Source of the DNA: Pristiophorus japonicus
Taxonomy: Eukaryota
Direction of reading: 5' to 3'
DNA: 64,000 nucleotides
Assembly (NCBI RefSeq): GCF_044704955.1
Contig: NC_091984.1
Coordinates: 198,090,001 to 198,154,000 of the forward strand
The position numbers were made by a program, and so were the translations under genes. Under the pieces are notes generated by a model. The model was not told where the DNA came from, did not search any database, and was given only the letters and a program-made list of their open reading frames with translations. Below are positions 52,618-64,000 of this stretch, in pieces (the first letter of the stretch is position 1; the number at the start of each line of letters is the position of its first letter).

Positions 52618-52821
52618 ATGATGGCTGGGGACGCAGCCGTGATCTGGTTTCTCTTGGGCTGGACTGTCACGTGTATTGTAACTGACCCCCTGGCGGCGGC
52701 TGAATCATATCCCTTTGGAACTGTTGCAGGAAAAAGTGAACCCTACTCTTCTAAAAGTAGTATTTTTAATGGCAGTTCATTTAGTCTGCTGCTTGAAGAA
52801 GGGAGCAGTGGTACTATGGAG
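52618..52821 (+). CDS. SLC8B1: Mitochondrial Na+/Li+/Ca2+ exchanger NCLX, first coding exon
   Basis: GCCATG after a (CT)n-AG acceptor; hydrophobic N-terminus; GT donor in phase 0 joins the conserved CRGV exon. Confidence 0.78.
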
Positions 52822-52911
52822 GTACTATTTTAATATAGTAAATATTGACCCGAAATGTAACTTTTTTTTGATTCAACAACAACGACTTGATAGTTATTTT
52901 CAGTTTATATG

Positions 52912-53391
52912 TTTAACAGGGTTTCCCGACTAGAACTACTGACTGTTGAAGACAATTTGCACTATTCACTGTGGGTTTTGACAGTTCTGCCAAGAGCAAG
53001 CACTGCAACCCACTTGTCAATATAAGGCAGGACAGTGCACCACAGTGACCAAGAAACTCTTTGTGACTTTTGATTCGGACAATTTATATTCTGTAGAATT
53101 CTAGGGAAATGTTTTTAAATCACTAACTATTGTAAGAAATGGGTTGATTTCATGAGTTATATGGCGTGTGCTTAGTGCTCCATATATCCCTCCACTTGGG
53201 TTTCTGCCCCTGTCACAGCAATGAAATGGCCTGAATTAGACGCAAAAGACTTTATTTGTGACTGGTGCACTTTCCTGCTTTGCATTGGCAATTGGGCTGT
53301 GCAGTGCTTCCTGGCAGAACTGTCAAACTCTATTGAAGACAATTTGCATGATTCACTGTGGTTCTAGTCTTAGTTGGGAAGTGCTGTTAAA
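52912..53391. repeat. imperfect foldback with an embedded 32-bp direct repeat
   Basis: Inverted arms 52975-53042 and 53263-53329, plus outer inverted ends. Direct repeat at 52943-52974 and 53330-53361. Confidence 0.75.
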
Positions 53392-53838
53392 ATTGTATTT
53401 GTTGTACAAGGACTGACTTTTTAAAAAATATTGGTCATCTGTCTGTTTAAATTTGTACATCTGGAGGGGAACTGTGTATGGACTACAACAGATTTCATGG
53501 GCTGTAGTTAGTAGTTGAAGATGTAGTTGACTTTTTAAATATAGTGGCTGATTTGAATGTGACTAGTATAAGAGAATGTTAACGGTACCAATTTAAGCTG
53601 AATTCCACCCATTATTACAAAACTGCCACAATCTTTAACTGAAATCTTTGAAAATCCACAACTTCTCTTTGCCATTGCAATTAACACAAGGCTAGTATCT
53701 TTATTGCTTTATTGACACTAGTTGCAGTCAAGGAACCTGACCGATTGTGTAAATGAATGGAATGGGTTTTGTTATCCTGGTTTACATTGTAAATTGAATA
53801 CTGCTGAATCAGCTAACTATATTTCCTTTATTTTCTAG

Positions 53839-53991
53839 TGTCGTGGTGTAATACAGCTCAATGGGTCCCAGTGGTGTTCATTTGTAAAAACTACTGAAGA
53901 CTGCAAAATTGACAGTGGCTTTATTGACTACCTCCAGGGGGCTATCTGTGGGTTTCACCACAATCTGCTACCATTGCCCATTGTGTTGTAT
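53839..53991 (+). CDS. SLC8B1: SLC8B1 coding exon 2
   Basis: AG/GTAAGT bounded, 153 nt. CRGVIQLNGSQWCSFVKTTEDCKIDSGFIDYLQGAICGFHHNLLPLPIVLY. Confidence 0.92.
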
Positions 53992-55488
53992 GTAAGTGTT
54001 GCCTATTTGCATTGAGCAAATGTTACATCTCTATTTTGTCTATCGTCATGTTCAATTATGGATTAAATTAAGGCGATGCTAGGTGTTTGTTCCAGTTGCA
54101 TGAAAAACCACATGCATCTACACCAAACCATATGCAAATTAAAGTTAACTTGCTGGCAATAACTTTTTAGTCTTGTGGTTGATCTTTTCCTGACTACCAG
54201 AAAAATGTAATTACTACTTTATACTCTGGTACTTGGTTGCTGTATAATCTAGGATGTTGGCTTTTTTTAAAAAAGAGAATCCTTATCTTTATTTTCTTAA
54301 ATTGAGCTGCATTCATGTTGCTTTGCTACTACTAACAACTATCTACTCCTCTCTGGCTATAGGCCTTGTTGTGCTACCACCTCTCTGTAATGTGGTTGTT
54401 TCCATTTTAGCTAGAGCAGAGAGACCGGCAGGTAGCTTAAAGAACCGAATAATAACAGAAAATGCTGGCAATCTCTGGGTCAGGCAGCATCTGTGGCAAG
54501 AAAGAGTGTAATGGTATTGACCTGACACTTTAACTCTGTTTCTCTCCACAGATGCTAGCTTTATCCAGAATGGAGTATTTTCCCCCTGGGTTTGTCTTTG
54601 TATATTTTCCCTCCCCTTGTTCTGATTGTATTATGTCTGTCCATCTCATTAAGCCCCAAAGAAGAGCTGCATTCTGTTTGCTCAACAGATGTTTCCAGCA
54701 GTCAGTTTTTAATCCAAGTGTTTGGCAGTTTTTAAAAAAAATGTCTTTGCTGAACCCCCTCCTGCAGACTCTTGGCAAGATTGTCATAGTCCTACATATG
54801 TGACTGCTGGTCAATCTAATAATGGCAATGTTTAATAGAAGAGGATTAAAAGAATATTCACCTTTGAGGATAGCATTGTCCATTAACTGATTACATAAAC
54901 CATGGTGATTAACCCTGTTACAGTTGATCTTGAACCACTGTTTACACAATGGAGGTTCACAATCCAAATGTGCATGTAACCTTACCAATGTTAATTGATC
55001 TTGACTGATAGCTAGTTGCAATACAAATAGTTATGTGGATTTGCCCTCCATGAATTAACTTGTTACAGAATTTAAAAATTCTGAAAGCCATCCCAAAGAT
55101 ACATTAAATACTTTTTAACCCTATTTTGAAAGCTGTGTAAAATCAAGACCCAATTCCTATCTATGCCACACTGGGTTAGCTCTAATACATCCTGGAGGGA
55201 AAGTAACTCTACTACCTTTTTTTTCTTGAGCCTGTATTAGGGAAAGTGTTCAATCAAATCCAAACCACTTGTACTCGTCTACTAACATTGAAGTAGTACA
55301 AAATAAAAGGTCAGAGGGGGATGGTAAGGGCAAAATGCAAAACACTTTGGTGGGGGACATGAGTTTGGATTTCTCAATGGTTGACTTGTCAGATTGTAGG
55401 ATTTAAAAAAAAAATGGTGAACCCATTTTGTATATCTAGAAGTGTGGTGGTGGTCAGTCAAAAGTATTCTTGTATATCTTTTTTACAG

Positions 55489-55541
55489 GTGATTTGGTTG
55501 GTCTATCTATTCACATTCCTTGGAGCAACAGCTGAAGATTT
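55489..55541 (+). CDS. SLC8B1: SLC8B1 coding exon 3
   Basis: AG/GTAAGT bounded, 53 nt. VIWLVYLFTFLGATAEDF. Confidence 0.9.
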
Positions 55542-56590
55542 GTAAGTATCTTTGTGCACAACTTGCTAGTAATACTGAGCCTTTTGCTGTGTTGCTCGTG
55601 GGGTTTTCAAAACTATAAAGGTAACATAATTACACACTGTTGTGGTCGTATCTCTTAACCAGCCTGCATGTCAAAGCAGGGATGTTGGTGCTGCAGAACA
55701 GAACTTTGCAATGCAGTGCACATTGGCAATACACAGCATTTCCAGGTGAAGTTGCATATAGAATCCAATTTGATGCACCACTCACAGTAGTATTTGCCCC
55801 AACCTCTGAGTATCCTCTACTGTAGCAGTGAATTGTTGGCCAGCCATCCTAGATATGGGTGAAATTGGAAACTGTTTCAGTTGACTAATCAACTCTTATG
55901 CTGCAAACACAGTACTAAACTGAGATTGCAGCACAAAGTGACTGGCCTGTCTGTTGCTTCATTGCCACTACCCTGCATGCACACTCTCCATAGCCTTGTA
56001 TCTTCTTTCAATTAATGGTCTTTTCCTCCTAATTCAGTCCAATGACCTAGTTTTCCATAGTAGTTTTTTTCCAGAGCTCCTGTTGTGCTTAAGTATTTTT
56101 GTTTAAAATTCCTGGTTCTGTTTTTTCTCTTTCCACTCCTCCCTTACCAGGAATGTAGTCAAACCTGGAGTGGCTGGGTCTGCAATTTTTTTTTACAACA
56201 AATCAAGCCTTTTGGATGGTGCTAGTGCTGGCTCTAACAGAACTACCCACAGTGCAATCACCTGCCCTTTCTCCATGCCTTCATTAAATTTATTTAAAAT
56301 ATTTAACCACTTTCCTTTTTAAACCTAGCATGGATTTTGCTTCCCATTCTCTTCTAACCACTTTCTGCATTGAAAGAAAATCCATCTCCTAACTGCTCCA
56401 TTCTTTAGGTGGTCTTGACTCTCTGCCCTCTAGTTACTGATTCATTATCTAACTAGTGTTTGTTTTTTGGGGGAGGGGAGAGAAAAAGGGAAATGTTCCT
56501 GAATAGCTCTTAACAGATTGAGTTCTGATCTTCAGATACTTTCTGAATACACTAAATTTAACTCATTAAGATTATTCTTTAACCTTTTAG

Positions 56591-56648
56591 TTTTTGTCCT
56601 AACCTGGCTGCCATCTCTGCAAGCTTAAAGTTGTCACATAATGTGGCA
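56591..56648 (+). CDS. SLC8B1: SLC8B1 coding exon 4
   Basis: 58 nt. FCPNLAAISASLKLSHNVA, followed by the U12 donor GTATCCTTT. Confidence 0.92.
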
Positions 56649-59600
56649 GTATCCTTTTTCACCTGTAAGTGCTTGGAAAGTACTATTTATTTGGTGAATT
56701 GTTTGCATGCTATTTTACTAAGATATTATGCCATAGATATAGATAGTTGTTAACCCATGTGTTATGGAAGGTAACATGGTAATAACAAATAGTAATTTCT
56801 ATGCTTTGAATTTTTAACAAACTCTTTAATTGTGCGAGGTAAACAATAAAATATGTTCAATACCAATTAAAATGCCCAAATAAAGTAGGGTGACTTTACA
56901 ATTGCAGTTCAGAAAAGATACAAGTATTGTAGTAATTTTCATTATTCAGGATAATTCTTGTCTAGTAAAGAATGCTTTGTTAAATTTGAGGTGTGTGCAC
57001 AAGGCCAATTGAGTTGGGTGGAATATCTGTCCTTTGTACTGTATCTGCCAATTCGGTGACTTTGACAGATGTCTCCCTTTGTCTCATAAATGTAATACTG
57101 CAAAACCCACATTCAGTTTAGTGGGGTATATTCATGAAGCTTGTATATGTAGGTGAAAATTGTCAAATGAAGTGACTGTTGCTAGAGCTGGATATGCTCC
57201 ATTTGTCTTCTTCCTCCTCCTCCCCACCCCCCCCCAACTTTTTAGTGCTCAATTTCTCCAATTATCATACCACCAATGCTGAGCATTTAAGAATATTGAG
57301 GATTGCCATTAATATAATACAATGTTCATGGTTAATAAATTCATGTGGGTATGGTGTGTGTGGCTAGTCGGCATGGGTTTATGAAGGGGAAATCTTGCTT
57401 GACAAATCTTGAATTTTTTGAGGATGTAACTAGTAGTGTGGACAAGGGAGGACCAGGGATGTGATGTATTTGGACTTTCAAAAGGCTTTTGACAAGGTCC
57501 CACACGAGATTGGTGTGCAAAATGAAAGCACATGGTATTGGGGGTAATGTATTGACGTGGATAGAGAACTGATTGGCAGACAGGAAGCAGAATTGGAATA
57601 AACTGGTCCTACTAGTGGGGTACCGCAAAGTTCAGTGATGGGACCCCAGCTCTTTACAATATACACTAATTTTAGATGAAGGAATTGAATGTAATATCCA
57701 AGTTTGCAGATGACTAAGCTGGGTGGCAGTGTGAGCTGTGAGGAGGCTGCAGGGTGACTGGGACAGGTTGTGAGTAGGCAAATGCATGGCAGATGCAGTA
57801 TAATGTAGATAAATGTGAGGTTATCCACTTTGATGGCAAAAACAGGAAGGCAGAATATTATCTGAATGGTGACAGATTAGGAAAAGGGGAGGTGCAATGA
57901 GACCTGGGTGTCATGGTAAATCAGTCATTGAAAGTTGGCATGCAGGTGGTGAAGGCAAATGGCATGTTGGCCTTCATAGCAAGAGGATTTAAGTATAGGA
58001 GCAGGGAGGTCTTGCTGCAGTTGTAAGAGCCTTGGTGAGACCACACCTTGATTACTGTGTTCAGTTTTGGTCTCCTAATCTGAGGAAGGATGTTCATGCT
58101 ATTGAGGGAGTGCAGCAAAGGTTCACCAGACTGATTCCCGGGATGGCAGGACTGACCTATAAAAGACTGGATTGACTAGGCTTATATTCACTGGAATTTA
58201 GATGAATGCGAGGGGATCTCATAGAAAAATAAAATTGACAGGTTAGATGCAGGACAAATGTTCCTGATGTTGGGGGTCCAGAACCAGGGGTCACAGTTTT
58301 AAGGATAAGGGGTAAGCCATTTAGGACTGATAAGGAGCAACTTCACTCGTTTGTGAACCTGTAGAATTATCTACCACAAAGTTGTTGATGCCAGTTCATT
58401 AGATATATTCAAAAGGAGTTGGATGTGGCCCTTGCAGCTAAAGGGAGCAAGGGGTATGGAGAGAAAGCAGGAATGGGGTTCTGAAGTTGCATGATCAGCC
58501 ATGATATTGAATGGTAGTGCAGGCTCCAAGGGCCGAATGGCCTACTGCTGCACCTATTCTGTTTCTATGAAGCGTGCTCCCGTCCTCCAGGTTCGGATGC
58601 ACTGCCCAACCAATCGGGTACAGTATTCCACAGCTTTCTCATTAATAGCAATGAGAACTCCCTATCTACGTTCATTGCTATTTAATGAGAAAAAACACCA
58701 TCACCTCACATAATTGAAATTAAAGTTAATGGCTTAATTTTTTTCCAATTTAAATTATGGTTTAAAATAAACTTACTGTAGTGGGCAGGGTTTTAACAAT
58801 GTTTTTAAAAAAAAAAAAAAAAAAATTTTTTTTAAACTCGCGCCTGTAAAAGTAGGCATGTGCTTGCTTTTCAGGTGCAAGAGTTTTCAGACATCCGCTG
58901 GACAAGATACGGCTAAATACCGCAATCTTGCCCATGCAAATGTCCTTCCGAGATGCGGAGGGTCTGCCCAGCTGGAGCTTGATGGATTGGGAAAAGCTGG
59001 CTTTCAGCGCATGTGGACCTGGGGGCTGTAATTTCTGGGCCAGGTTCCCCCCTCATTTCCCCCATTCCCCCAATATGCCCCTCAGCGCTCATGGGCAAGA
59101 ATCGCATTTTTGCACTCCAAATAATTGTATAATGCCTCCTTGCGCAAGGAAGTGCCGAAAGTTGCGTCTTAAATCGGTAATGCAGCAAAAGGTAATTTTC
59201 ACGTATCGCTTATGTTTTTGGCCAAAAACGGCGCAACCTGAAAATCCAGTCCAAGGGGTTCTTGATTTCAATGAGGTTTCTTGTCCTTAAGACCAACTTC
59301 AGTCTTGAATGTTCTAAAGTAGGACAGAATAGTGCTGGCTCGCCATCTGTAAATTCTAGAATTTGCTACACCACATTTAACTAAGCTAAGGGAGTAACTA
59401 TTTGTACTGTTTTTCTGCACATGGTTCTGTCAAGCTCCACCTCCTGCCCGTACCGGAAGTGTGGCCCCTGACTGAAATCATTCCACGGGGCAGAGCGGCC
59501 AGCGGGGGGACAGAGAGGGAGCGACCGGCGGGGGTGGCAGCAAAGTGGCACGGGGGGGTTTCGGCAGGGAGAGCGGGAACTCTGGATAGACAGATCACAT

Positions 59601-60392
59601 TCTTGAAACCCCCTACAAGGGACATCGTTGAAGTGGATGAAATCCAGAAGTCACACCACTCACTTCACTTCATATCCAATAAATCTGTCAACAATCTGTA
59701 CACAATGCCCCATCTATGGGTGGGGAGGGTGTGCACTTGTGCTGGGGCAAGACACTTTGGCTGGCCCTTGGTGTCTTCGGAGATTTAGCTTCTGGAAGTC
59801 AGTGGATTGAGTTATAATTTGCAAACTCTGTGAAACCTTGATGGGAGGTTCCTGTTACACATTCCAGAGAAACTTCAGGGTGTGGCTTCTCAAAGGGTGG
59901 CCATTTTCACAGTACAATAAACACATCCATAAGCTGATGGCCCATTATCTGTTTCAAGTACACTTTTTTTGAGTCCATGTATGAAGAAGGAAATATAAAT
60001 CAACTCCTGCTTTTCTAGTTACCATTTTAAGGTAGGCAACACTGTGTACAGCTGGACACTTGCACTTTTTTGATTTGTTTTTTGAAATGAGTACATGTGA
60101 AACTTGAAAGCAAGTAAGCTATTTACCTGCATTTTGATAGTTTATTGCAATTTTTAACTTGTCAGATAACCCTGTACTGACTTTGGTCTCTTGACCAAGA
60201 TTTGTTACAAGTAACTGATGTTGGATTGTCCACACCAGATTTAAACACTTAACTAGAATGCATCTCACCATGGTCTTCAGTTCTATTAATTGTTTACTCC
60301 TTCCCTTTTATCTCGGTAATAATTGTGATGCTGCTTTGTGACCATGTTTGACTAAATGCATCATTTAATTTTCCTTGATGGATTTTGTTCAT
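56649..60392 (+). other. U12-type (minor spliceosome) intron with GT-AT termini
   Basis: 5' site GTATCCTTT. Branch sequence TTTTCCTTGAT at 60369-60379. Intron ends ...TTCAT before GGT GTA ACG. No AG dinucleotide between 60281 and 60421. Confidence 0.85.
57366..58569 (+). mobile_element. CR1 LINE 3' fragment inside the SLC8B1 U12 intron
   Basis: Degenerate HGFMKGKSCLTNL, DFQKAFDKVPH and KFADD. Typical CR1 3'UTR ending ...TTCTATG. Confidence 0.87.
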
Positions 60393-60498
60393 GGTGTAAC
60401 GTTCCTTGCCCTTGGCAATGGAGCTCCTGATGTATTCAGTGCAATTGTTGCCTTTTCTGATCCTAGAACAGCAAACCTGGCAATTGGTGCCTTATTTG
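60393..60498 (+). CDS. SLC8B1: SLC8B1 coding exon 5 (alpha-1 repeat)
   Basis: GVTFLALGNGAPDVFSAIVAFSDPRTANLAIGALF carries the CCX-family GNGAPD motif. GTAAGT donor. Confidence 0.93.
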
Positions 60499-61203
60499 GT
60501 AAGTTTTTTAACATTTTTAGTTCTTTGATCATTGCTCTGTTTTATAAAAATTATATTTTGGCTTAAAAACCACATCTTCACAGGGTGGGTTTCTACTAGT
60601 GTTTGGTAACCCACCCATTATGTCAGCATGAGTGACCCCCTGGTTGGTTGTTTCCCAGTACTTCCCCATTTTCCCATGCTATTGGGGCATGTGTAGGTGA
60701 GCAATTGTGCTATCTCTCTGCTGTGTACTGTGCTGCTGAATTCTCCCATTTTGATATTACAGGCTGTTGCTGATCCTTCCAGTGCCGTTTTGTTACCTGA
60801 GCAGTTTTTGGGGGATTTATCCTTTGTGACTCCACTTTCCTGTGTTTTCAGTGCCCTCTTGAAGTGATGTTGACTGTCTAGTAAAATTGAATTCTCTCCA
60901 TGGTTACATAGAACTTTGCAGCACAGAATCCGGTCCTTTGGCCTAGCTTAATGGCCCATTAGTCATACTTTATTTTGGGTGGATGGGGTGGCAGGGAGTT
61001 GTAGTAATTGGTGTAGCATAGCTGATGACAAATCCTATGTCTAGCTCTTGCCTGTAACTAGTTCATTTGCTGCTGAACTACAATTTCTCAAGCACCTGCA
61101 TATAGTAAAAATGCTGTTTTTTTTTTAAAGCAGATACTGAATAATTAATTGGCTTCCCTAAAGTCCTGCAAACCTATCTTTTCTCACTTCCTCAACTTTG
61201 CAG

Positions 61204-61371
61204 GTGCTGGTATATTTGTGACTACTGTTGTTGCTGGAGGTGTTGCCCTTGCAAGACCATTCACAGTGGCATCAAGACCCTTCCTTCGAGATGTGATATT
61301 CTACATGGCAGCTGTCTTCTGGACTTTTGTGGTCCTCTATTTCCAGAGCATTGACTTGGGACAAGCACTCG
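61204..61371 (+). CDS. SLC8B1: SLC8B1 coding exon 6
   Basis: AG/GT bounded, 168 nt. GAGIFVTTVVAGGVALARPFTVASRPFLRDVIFYMAAVFWTFVVLYFQSIDLGQAL. Confidence 0.93.
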
Positions 61372-61507
61372 GTGAGGGATATTTGAGCAAATTCCAATCA
61401 CTAGTAAACTGGTCAATTTTAGCTGCTTCTGGCAGTTTTTCTTCACTTAATGTAAGGTTATTTGACTGTATAGTAGTGAAATTGATTTGTGTACTTTATC
61501 TCCATAG

Positions 61508-61618
61508 GTTACTTGGCTCTGTATGCAGTCTATGTATTCACAGTGATCATAAGCAGTATCATTTACAAAAAGGGCAAGAACCAGGCACATGATTCCCTTT
61601 ATAGTACTGAATCTGAAA
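61508..61618 (+). CDS. SLC8B1: SLC8B1 coding exon 7
   Basis: AG/GTAAGT bounded, 111 nt. GYLALYAVYVFTVIISSIIYKKGKNQAHDSLYSTESE. Confidence 0.91.
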
Positions 61619-62080
61619 GTAAGTTCATTGCTGGTCACGTAGATATCCTTGTCTTGTGGATTCCAATTATACCACAAGATTGACTGCCAATGTCTCTGCC
61701 CTTGGTTCTACAAAAACTATTACTGTAGCAGCATAAATGTGTTGAAGGGAAATAGACAAATCATAAGTGATTTGGTGAATTCTACATTCTTGCCACTCAC
61801 TGTAAATTGTACCATGTTTGAGAAGGCAGAGTTCATGCATAGTGCTCTGCTTACTGACCTCCTGCTGGTGGCTTGTTTTAAGAGGTAATTATCCCATCAG
61901 CTTTTTTGGTTTTAAACATTTATTCTGAAACATCAAATATAATTTCTACTTCATTAATGGCAAATGTTGTGAAGTTGAAGCAGCAGATAAGAATCCTCCA
62001 GATCTTGCACCACAAGAGAACTTGTTTGCAACATCTATGCATTGGTGGAAGTGATGAACATTATAACTAATGTTTTTCAG

Positions 62081-62137
62081 TCTGTGACACGGAGGATGCA
62101 AATCCATCCTGTATCAGGAGACCTATACATGACGACT
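62081..62137 (+). CDS. SLC8B1: SLC8B1 coding exon 8
   Basis: ttttcAG/GTAAG bounded, 57 nt, phase 1-1. ICDTEDANPSCIRRPIHDD (loop region). Confidence 0.75.
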
Positions 62138-62516
62138 GTAAGCACTTTTTTTATTCTAACGAGCTGGGTAAAGTAGTACTCCATTTTCATAAGGATGTGT
62201 ATATAAAAGTACTCCAATTTCAGAATGCTTTCCTGTTGGACAACCACATTTGCTTTCAAGTGGCTAATCTATGTAATTTACCAAGTTAGTTGAGCAATTT
62301 CACTAGTGCTCTAATTCAGGAAATTATTGTAAGCTAGCATTATAGCAAGGATAATTCCTCACTGATCGTGGACTGGACTACGATTGCATAAAATGCTTGT
62401 GGTAATTCAAGCTGAGTAAAACCTGTTGCGACACTTCGTTTTGAGTTTAGTAATATGTGTCATGCTGCAGTCTAGTCATTCTTTGAATTGAAATCCAAAA
62501 TTGTATTTTTCCTTAG

Positions 62517-62650
62517 CAAGCGAGTATCAATCTTTAATTGGAGAAGAACCCAAATCTACAAAATCCATTTTGTTGGACTCTCTTAACCCTATTGACTTAC
62601 AAAAATGGAGGAGAAAACACCTGCCCTGGAAGATCTTCAAATGTCTGAAG
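62517..62650 (+). CDS. SLC8B1: SLC8B1 coding exon 9
   Basis: 134 nt. SSEYQSLIGEEPKSTKSILLDSLNPIDLQKWRRKHLPWKIFKCLK. Confidence 0.9.
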
Positions 62651-63387
62651 GTGATTCTAACTAGGAGGGTGGTTGGGTGACTTCTAGACTGTCCAAGAAA
62701 ACTATGGGGGGGGGGGGGGGGGGGGTGTTCATAGCTTTAGATGATGCTAAAATTGCTCCTTTGAAGCCTAATCTTAATTTTGACTTCCATTTCCTGTAAT
62801 TTCTGCATTATTGCTAACTGCATAGGCATCTAATGACCTAATTTCTCAGTTAAGGCTGGCAACCACCAGAAGGTCCCAATTTTCAATGCATTACACTTTC
62901 CTTGGGTGTTGACCTATGGGGAAATAAATCTTTCAACTATTATCTCTGATAAATTCTGAATTGCTATTTCAAATGTATTTGTGCTGCCAAGTAAATGGCA
63001 ATAGTTTTGGTGTGCTCTGCTTGAACAACTCTCATTGCTTTGAAATACTAGGACAATCCAATTGTCACTGCCTTTTTTCCACCTCCACTCTTTCTTCCTA
63101 CCCCCACACATACAAAAAATGAAGAATCTTCCAGCTTGCCAGTTAGTCATCTGCACCCAAAATCACTTTTTCCAGCACTGATTTTTAGTCATCTCTTTTC
63201 CAGTAGTGGCTTGTGGCCTATTGCAACAGTCTTGAGGGTTTATTCCCTATTCTTGCTGCTTTTGGGCCTTGGGCTAGTGATGTGGTTTAATTTCATCATT
63301 TTAGACTTGGCAGTCTGCCAAGTACAGTAAATGCAAAAATCCCAGCAATTCAACACTGTATTTACAATTGGCTTCTTTTTGTTCCAG

Positions 63388-63529
63388 CTGCCAATTGAGA
63401 TTTTGCTTCGAATCTGTATACCTGTGGTGGATTCAGACCAGGAAGACCACAACTGGAAGCGCCCTTTAAACTGTCTACAAATTATTACTGGCTCACTTGT
63501 GTGCATCCTCACATTTAAATCTGGCTATT
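63388..63529 (+). CDS. SLC8B1: SLC8B1 coding exon 10 (gene continues beyond right edge)
   Basis: 142 nt. LPIEILLRICIPVVDSDQEDHNWKRPLNCLQIITGSLVCILTFKSGY. GTAAG donor. Confidence 0.92.
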
Positions 63530-64000
63530 GTAAGAATTATTTTAAACTGTTTAATTGTTTGAATGCCATTCTGGTACTAGACCACCCACATTTATTGAAA
63601 CTTCCAAATCACCAAGTTCTAGTTGGGATTTGCCTATTAAATTAGAGGTTGATTTTTAACCCTGCCTGCCACTAACCAGGTGGTTGGGCTGAAAAACTTG
63701 CCTTTCACTTTATTTTTTTCAAGTGGGTAAGCAGCTTCATGAATGAATACAAATTGCTGTCCTATTTGTATCCCAGTTACATTTTGACTGGTGCTTGAGT
63801 GGGAACTGCAGTTTCTTTTCCATCAAGCTGAAGTGGGTCTACAGATAGAATCCCTCTAGGGTAAGTGGGGAAAAACTTGTGGGGTTAAGATCAAGCCTGC
63901 TCCTCTACACCCCACAAGGAAAGTCTCCAATCTCCCCTGCCCCAGACACTCCTGCTCTCAACCTTCCTGCTTGCTGACCAGCCTCCTTTTTGGTGCTAGC

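Follow-up and report, generated by a model that had tools for sequence, protein, structure and literature searches.

A GT-AT intron with U12-type signals in shark SLC8B1 (NCLX), and the intron ends found at its position in other eukaryotes

In a stretch of 64,000 nucleotides of Pristiophorus japonicus DNA (hereafter, the window), a first-pass annotation had placed, within the SLC8B1 (NCLX) gene, an intron which starts as a U12-type intron and ends with AT rather than AG or AC. The locus raises the questions of whether this AT is genuine, which spliceosome would remove the intron, and whether such an end is found outside this shark. On the evidence described below, we hold with high confidence that this is a genuine GT-AT intron, likely spliced by the U12 machinery and orthologous to the one catalogued in human and mouse SLC8B1. 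Both the class and this intron in human and mouse are already known; what is new is that the GT-AT end is common to shark and human, together with the series of ends found at this position. Since class and intron had already been catalogued, the finding alters no principle. The features are listed in Table 1.

Table 1. Features of the shark SLC8B1 locus, and introns at the same position in other loci. Positions are those of the window unless a contig is named.
Feature	Position	Strand	Evidence
SLC8B1/NCLX, first ten coding exons (residues 1-376)	52618..64000	+	tblastn of P0002; Pfam Na_Ca_ex
Coding exon 4, 58 nt, ...LKLSHNVA, phase 0 end	56591..56648	+	joints 55541->56591 and 56648->60393 in X5, X6
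GT-AT intron with U12 signals, 3,744 nt	56649..60392	+	joint 56648->60393 in X5, X6
U12-type 5' splice site GTATCCTTTTTC	56649..56660	+	U12 consensus; best U11 pairing among 9 donors
Intronic high-copy repeat, probably the decayed remnant of a LINE	57400..58560 (limits approximate)	.	contig depths in DNA runs, adding up to the order of 10^6
AG-free stretch around the acceptor	60281..60421	+	
U12-type branch site TTTTCCTTGAT, with its branch A predicted at 60378	60369..60379	+	predicted 10-bp pairing with U12 snRNA
Non-canonical AT 3' splice site	60391..60392	+	0 differences in X1, X2, X3 DNA contigs and X7 contig
Coding exon 5 (GVTFLALGNGAPD...), with alpha-1 calcium ligands	60393..60498	+	match to NCLX chains 9ps1, 9z4i
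Second U12 intron of SLC8B1, 92 nt, GT-AG, after IIF codons	L086:6161-6252 (G000:C8:198160161-198160252), outside the window		
AT-AT intron, same position	L012:822-1564; L014:178-914		nearest clams (Mercenaria 88%)
AT-AC intron, same position	L028:920-1316; L031:1077-1471		unplaced eukaryote

Signals and splice joint of the shark intron

The gene runs past the end of the window, its remaining part being found on contig L086. When the NCLX isoform X2 of P. japonicus (P0002) was aligned to the exons of the window by tblastn, the identity was 100% on most exon cores. Exon 4 terminates with CATAATGTGGCA (CAT AAT GTG GCA) at 56648, and the donor which follows, GTATCCTTT, agrees with the U12-type consensus RTATCCTT. 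The intron terminates with TTCAT, its last base being 60392, and exon 5 opens with GGTGTAACG (GGT GTA ACG TTC CTT). The predicted branch A lies 14 nt before the intron end, in a sequence agreeing with the branch pattern TTCCTTRAY; in U12 introns this distance is typically about 10-20 nt. Under a mononucleotide model, the chance of finding GTATCCTT at a fixed site is about 2e-5, and that of finding TCCTTRAY within a 10-site window is about 8e-4. A GT-AT intron of U2 type is characterized by a U1-type donor (GTRAGT) and by the lack of a U12 branch; the intron examined has instead GTATCC as its donor, along with a U12 branch.

The AG dinucleotides nearest to the acceptor are found at 60279-80, upstream, and at 60422-23, downstream. 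Ranked by length, the resulting gap (143) comes 6th among the 4221 gaps of the window, and one of the longer ones is a run of N. Six acceptors were examined, and only AT60392 leaves the reading frame open: AG60280, TG60393, TG60396, AC60400 and AG60423 each shift the frame into stops. Use of AG60280 would add 112 nt and break the frame, with a stop after 2 codons; combined with the skipping of exon 4, it keeps the frame, and stops are encountered all the same. The exon and intron ends proposed by the first-pass annotation, the U12-type donor at 56649, the position of the branch A, the absence of AG from 60281 to 60421 and the disruptive effect of the upstream AG were thus all found in the sequence as described.

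The repeat located inside the intron is presumably of LINE origin, a label which rests on its motifs; one of its ORFs was searched against Pfam and gave no match. A second high-copy stretch was observed at 59520-59920. High-copy repeats explain part of the length of the shark intron, compared to the 163 nt of the human one.

Seven sequencing runs (X1-X7) cover the region, and six of them were compared, X4 being left out; in all cases assembled contigs, rather than raw reads, were used. X1-X4 are DNA runs from one sample, possibly the source of the assembly itself, while X5-X7 derive from a single study and are transcript-like, although not on record as RNA. The 56648->60393 joint, with GT..AT ends, is carried by one contig in X5 (depth 27.5) and by one in X6 (depth 20), as predicted from the sequence; both runs also contain the flanking GT..AG joints 55541->56591 and 60497->61203. 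None of these three joints was found in the contigs of DNA runs X1 and X3, and X5 and X6 therefore behave as transcript data. The spliced form across 56648/60393 was not found in the X7 contigs, and is thus present in two out of three transcript-like runs. A shift of the joint by 1 nt, to TA..TG ends, would also fit, an ambiguity which is resolved by the donor being of U12 type. One X7 contig (depth 4.5; window 60312-60500) retains the last 81 nt of the intron, and 17 of its 18 following letters match exon 5, an extension which falls under the 31-letter bridging rule; it hints at a partly spliced molecule and at a late removal of the minor intron.

The shark genome contains three matches to U12 snRNA and one to U11 snRNA, all above the Rfam cut-off. 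The branch sequence TTTTCCTTGAT is predicted to form a 10-bp duplex (-10.2 kcal/mol) with each of the three U12 copies; as two U2 acceptors of SLC8B1 reach -9.2 and -9.0 kcal/mol against U12, the duplex energy alone is weakly discriminating. The donor pairs with the 5' end of U11 at -6.9 kcal/mol, the best value among 9 donors and followed by -4.4, three of the comparison donors being off by a few nucleotides. The minor spliceosome is therefore a likely agent of the removal of this intron, as judged from its signals.

The choice of the acceptor, in minor introns, depends on the distance from the branch. By analogy with what is established for U12 introns, U11 would pair with positions +4 to +10 of GTATCCTTTT, and U12 with TTTTCCTTG, leaving A60378 bulged out; the acceptor would then be picked for its short distance from the branch, and not for being an AG. 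As no AG is within reach, the AT located 14 nt past the branch would be used, which results in the only open frame. The U12 machinery is able to splice GT-AT introns, according to section 23 of PMC1557818.

Position in the protein and database models

Exon 5 corresponds to residues 141-175 of the solved NCLX chains 9ps1 and 9z4i, and the minor intron is located immediately before G141, in PDB chain numbering. The calcium ligands of the alpha-1 repeat are N149 and D153, as reported in PMC12571890, and their equivalents are found 8 and 12 residues into exon 5. Since the position of the intron precedes both, no cut is made between the calcium ligands, and the original description of an intron splitting the ion-binding repeat was overstated, both residues being encoded by the downstream exon. 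The second U12 intron of the gene coincides in position with that of the human row chr12:113304386-113306494, and is thus common to shark and human. In the same gene, an X6 contig joins 61371 to the exon at 62517, leaving out 61372-62516 of the window; two exons, of 111 and 57 nt, are skipped, for a total of 56 residues, and the frame is kept. The 542-residue database isoform P0001 has the length expected from this two-exon skip.

An intron with such ends had been expected to be mis-annotated by standard gene predictors. This does not apply to the proteins of the shark itself, as the database entries P0001, P0002 and P0084 all read HNVA-GVTF, the correct junction, and it does apply to many homologues. 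Within a first set of 120 homologues, 47 showed the exact junction, 71 ended with H before GVTF, and 2 were of another kind. After 14 ORFs from raw contigs were set apart from the 71, intron-derived residues ending in H were found in 57 of 103 named homologues, a proportion which is not a rate, because the query included 6 intron-encoded residues and favoured H-ending matches. One of the 57 is a RefSeq mouse isoform, with no evident error. Mouse isoform 2 (P0030) reads AAKFPH-GVTF, without exon 4; judging from this sequence, exon 5 is apparently joined at a nearer acceptor, a few bases before the AT, so that the minor intron is avoided and the frame kept, unlike in the shark combination of exon 4 skipping with AG60280, where stops are met. 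NCLX models carrying intron-derived residues before the alpha-1 calcium site need correction before being used in alignments.

Ends at the same position across eukaryotes

Peptides derived from raw contigs, or from imperfect gene models, run on across the intron end (read-throughs), and the last codon of the intron can be deduced from the residue which precedes GVTF; such peptides cannot separate AT from AC, nor AG from AA. The survey was performed with an exon-only query and yielded 115 representatives, 15 of which were without the motif. Lineages were assigned to nameless contigs and peptides by similarity alone. Among the sequences nearest to non-teleost vertebrates, H (CAT/CAC) ends all 20 read-throughs, the remaining 7 members of the group being five spliced forms, one start and one NVD model. 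The 14 teleost-like read-throughs end with Q (6) or E (8), and none with H; the teleost-like intron end is therefore likely to be AG. Many of these read-throughs keep the S-L-T register of the U12 branch, and a separate exon-led query agrees, with 5 teleost-like sequences showing Q. Mixed end residues were found in invertebrate-like read-throughs.

Among vertebrates, the AT end is known at the DNA level for shark, human and mouse only. No close vertebrate match was found among the metagenome relatives listed, the best identity being 69%, and other vertebrate ends are consequently derived from peptides only. The metagenome loci analyzed are the best 80 of at least 482 relatives. Within these 80, the coding sequence is interrupted at or beside the intron position in 20 loci: 10 carry a U12 branch (6 with AG, 2 with AT and 2 with AC ends), 7 have no U12 branch and end with AG, and a further 3 are apparently shifted by 1 nt. 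Besides the AT-AT and AT-AC introns reported in Table 1, two loci (L013 and L019) contain a U12 GT-AG intron at the same position, and four more combine an AG end with a U12 branch, the donor not being found on the contig. In some homologues, short GT-AG introns without U12 signals occupy the same position. A 39-nt in-frame insert was observed in L021, L025 and L029, before the matches at 2533, 2410 and 833, respectively; its sequence has the look of a GT-AG intron displaced downstream by one base relative to the minor intron, and may possibly represent intron sliding with class conversion.

These data would be accounted for by an old U12 intron, the ends of which drifted among AT-AC, AT-AT, GT-AT and GT-AG in the different eukaryotic lineages. 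By parsimony, the ancestral jawed vertebrate probably already had GT-AT ends here; shark and mammals would have retained them, and in teleosts an AG end likely took over.

Mammalian orthologs, alternative explanations and related introns

SLC24A6 is the former name of SLC8B1, and the names of the homologues found in database searches fit with this. GT-AT ends are listed for the SLC24A6 intron in both human and mouse in Table 3 of Sheth 2006 (PMC1557818), a paper reporting 4 U12 GT-AT introns in human and 3 in mouse. The supplement of the CENATAC study of 2021 (PMC8280824) classes the human intron, chr12:113320687-113320849, as U12 GT_AT, with donor and branch scores of 0.95 and 0.88; according to its rows, the human donor comes after the same ...AACGTGGCA exon end, and the branch A, by our own count, is also 14 nt from the intron end. 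In Table S6 of Olthof 2024 (PMC11347168), the human intron is classed as minor, and 4 of the 9 datasets, including one with a U12 morpholino, show it responding to the loss of the minor spliceosome. The shark and human introns are identical in gene, codon position and phase (0), and are on this basis orthologous. The first-pass annotation could not say whether the orthologous intron had been catalogued; in human and mouse it has, as documented by these three sources. No literature on an SLC8B1/NCLX minor intron outside mammals was found, although IAOD, MIDB and U12DB may list non-mammalian orthologs; the same holds for the supplements of PMC2831892, PMC4176328, PMC10639083 and PMC7367187, papers in which no mention of the SLC8B1 intron was found under the terms searched.

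Seven human U12 GT-AT rows, including SLC8B1, are present in one dataset of the PMC8280824 supplement. The other human introns of this subtype are located in OCRL, ALG6, GPR89A/B, ADAT2/DEADC1 and CACNA2D2. In shark DNA, the minor intron of ALG6, GT-AT in human, is AT-AC (L095, G000:C8:91228001-91238000, minus strand), and that of ADAT2, also GT-AT in human, is GT-AG (L097:574-4267). The GT-AT ends are thus kept in one of the three genes examined in the shark (SLC8B1 only; a small sample, three of six genes, with GPR89A/B counted once). A first ALG6 candidate (C10, L089) was discarded, as it has no intron at that codon and resembles ALG8, and a PF14437 search returned only an intronless deaminase.

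The AT could be thought to result from an assembly error, or from a private variant of an ordinary GT-AG minor intron, as teleost-like homologues are likely AG-ended and X1-X4 come from one sample, maybe the very source of the assembly. No difference is found at 60391-92, however, either in the DNA contigs of X1, X2 and X3 or in the X7 contig, which derives from another sample and another study, and AT is found at the same site in human and mouse. On the strength of the contigs an assembly error was rejected and the AT taken as genuine, and we regard this whole explanation as extremely improbable. Removal by the major spliceosome, or a boundary shifted by 1 nt (TA...TG) and producing an identical mRNA, is hardly more credible: the joint is ambiguous by that one nucleotide, U2-type GT-AT introns are described in PMC1557818 (DGCR2), and some homologues have the short GT-AG introns mentioned above, but the donor is a full U12 consensus and not U1-like, the branch is a U12 consensus with the human spacing, and loss of the minor spliceosome affects the human ortholog (PMC11347168, Table S6). 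Splicing of a genuine GT-AT intron by the minor spliceosome remains by far the best explanation.

To this explanation, and not in its place, it could be added that the AT end has been selected as a weak site, throttling NCLX output; we consider this unlikely, though less so than the previous alternatives. The first-pass annotation had proposed that the intron could rate-limit NCLX expression, which stays a hypothesis. The AT persists from shark to human, while ALG6 and ADAT2 have canonical ends in the shark, and a persistence of the terminal T between sharks and tetrapods would span over 400 million years. According to PMC1557818, 14 of 24 non-canonical U12 intron pairs switched their ends between human and mouse. 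In the rows of PMC8280824, control retention of the human intron is 0.43 in one dataset, the top value among the 7 GT-AT rows, but values in three datasets are 0.06, 0.25 and 0.43, with base means of 5-29 reads; retention is 0.77 with ZRSR2 mutation, yet the test for this row is not significant (padj 1). The X7 contig retaining the intron end may be called in favour, but its depth is low and its extension too short, and X5 and X6 carry the spliced form. Against a selected weak site are also the teleost-like genes, which seem to have moved to AG, and the second minor intron in the same gene; purifying selection against worse ends, together with the rarity of an improving change, could suffice for persistence. 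The broader proposal that the terminal T was selected in sharks and tetrapods as an NCLX throttle, that teleosts released it, and that the switching series skips AT-AG, appears to us equally doubtful. If it were true, mitochondrial calcium efflux would be tied to minor-spliceosome activity via a weak acceptor, the AG of teleosts being a released brake, and the position would preserve an AT-AC > AT-AT > GT-AT > GT-AG series, not passing via AT-AG.

Aside from this proposal, the intron provides a dated example of a non-canonical minor-intron end common to shark and human, with two comparable introns being canonical in the shark. It is also a clean one-base (T to G) test case of whether non-canonical minor-intron ends are tuned for regulation or are neutral leftovers; malfunction of the gene has been associated with heart failure and neurodegeneration (PMC12571890).

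In comparison with its known counterparts, the shark intron shares with human and mouse SLC8B1 the GTATCCTTTT donor, the CCTTGA branch, the 14 nt spacing and the CAT end, and in both shark and human a second, later U12 intron is found in the gene. The two species differ in intron length, 3,744 nt in shark and 163 nt in human, and in the upstream AG, which is absent within 112 nt in shark but found, in the human acceptor region, at a distance of about 37 nt. The ends observed at this position differ among lineages by single bases, as in the switching of U12 introns discussed by Sheth (PMC1557818). The proposed intermediate is AT-AG in that paper, whereas AT-AC, AT-AT, GT-AT and GT-AG are the ends found here; as a series of sequences they suggest, with no order or direction implied, a switching route via an AT end.
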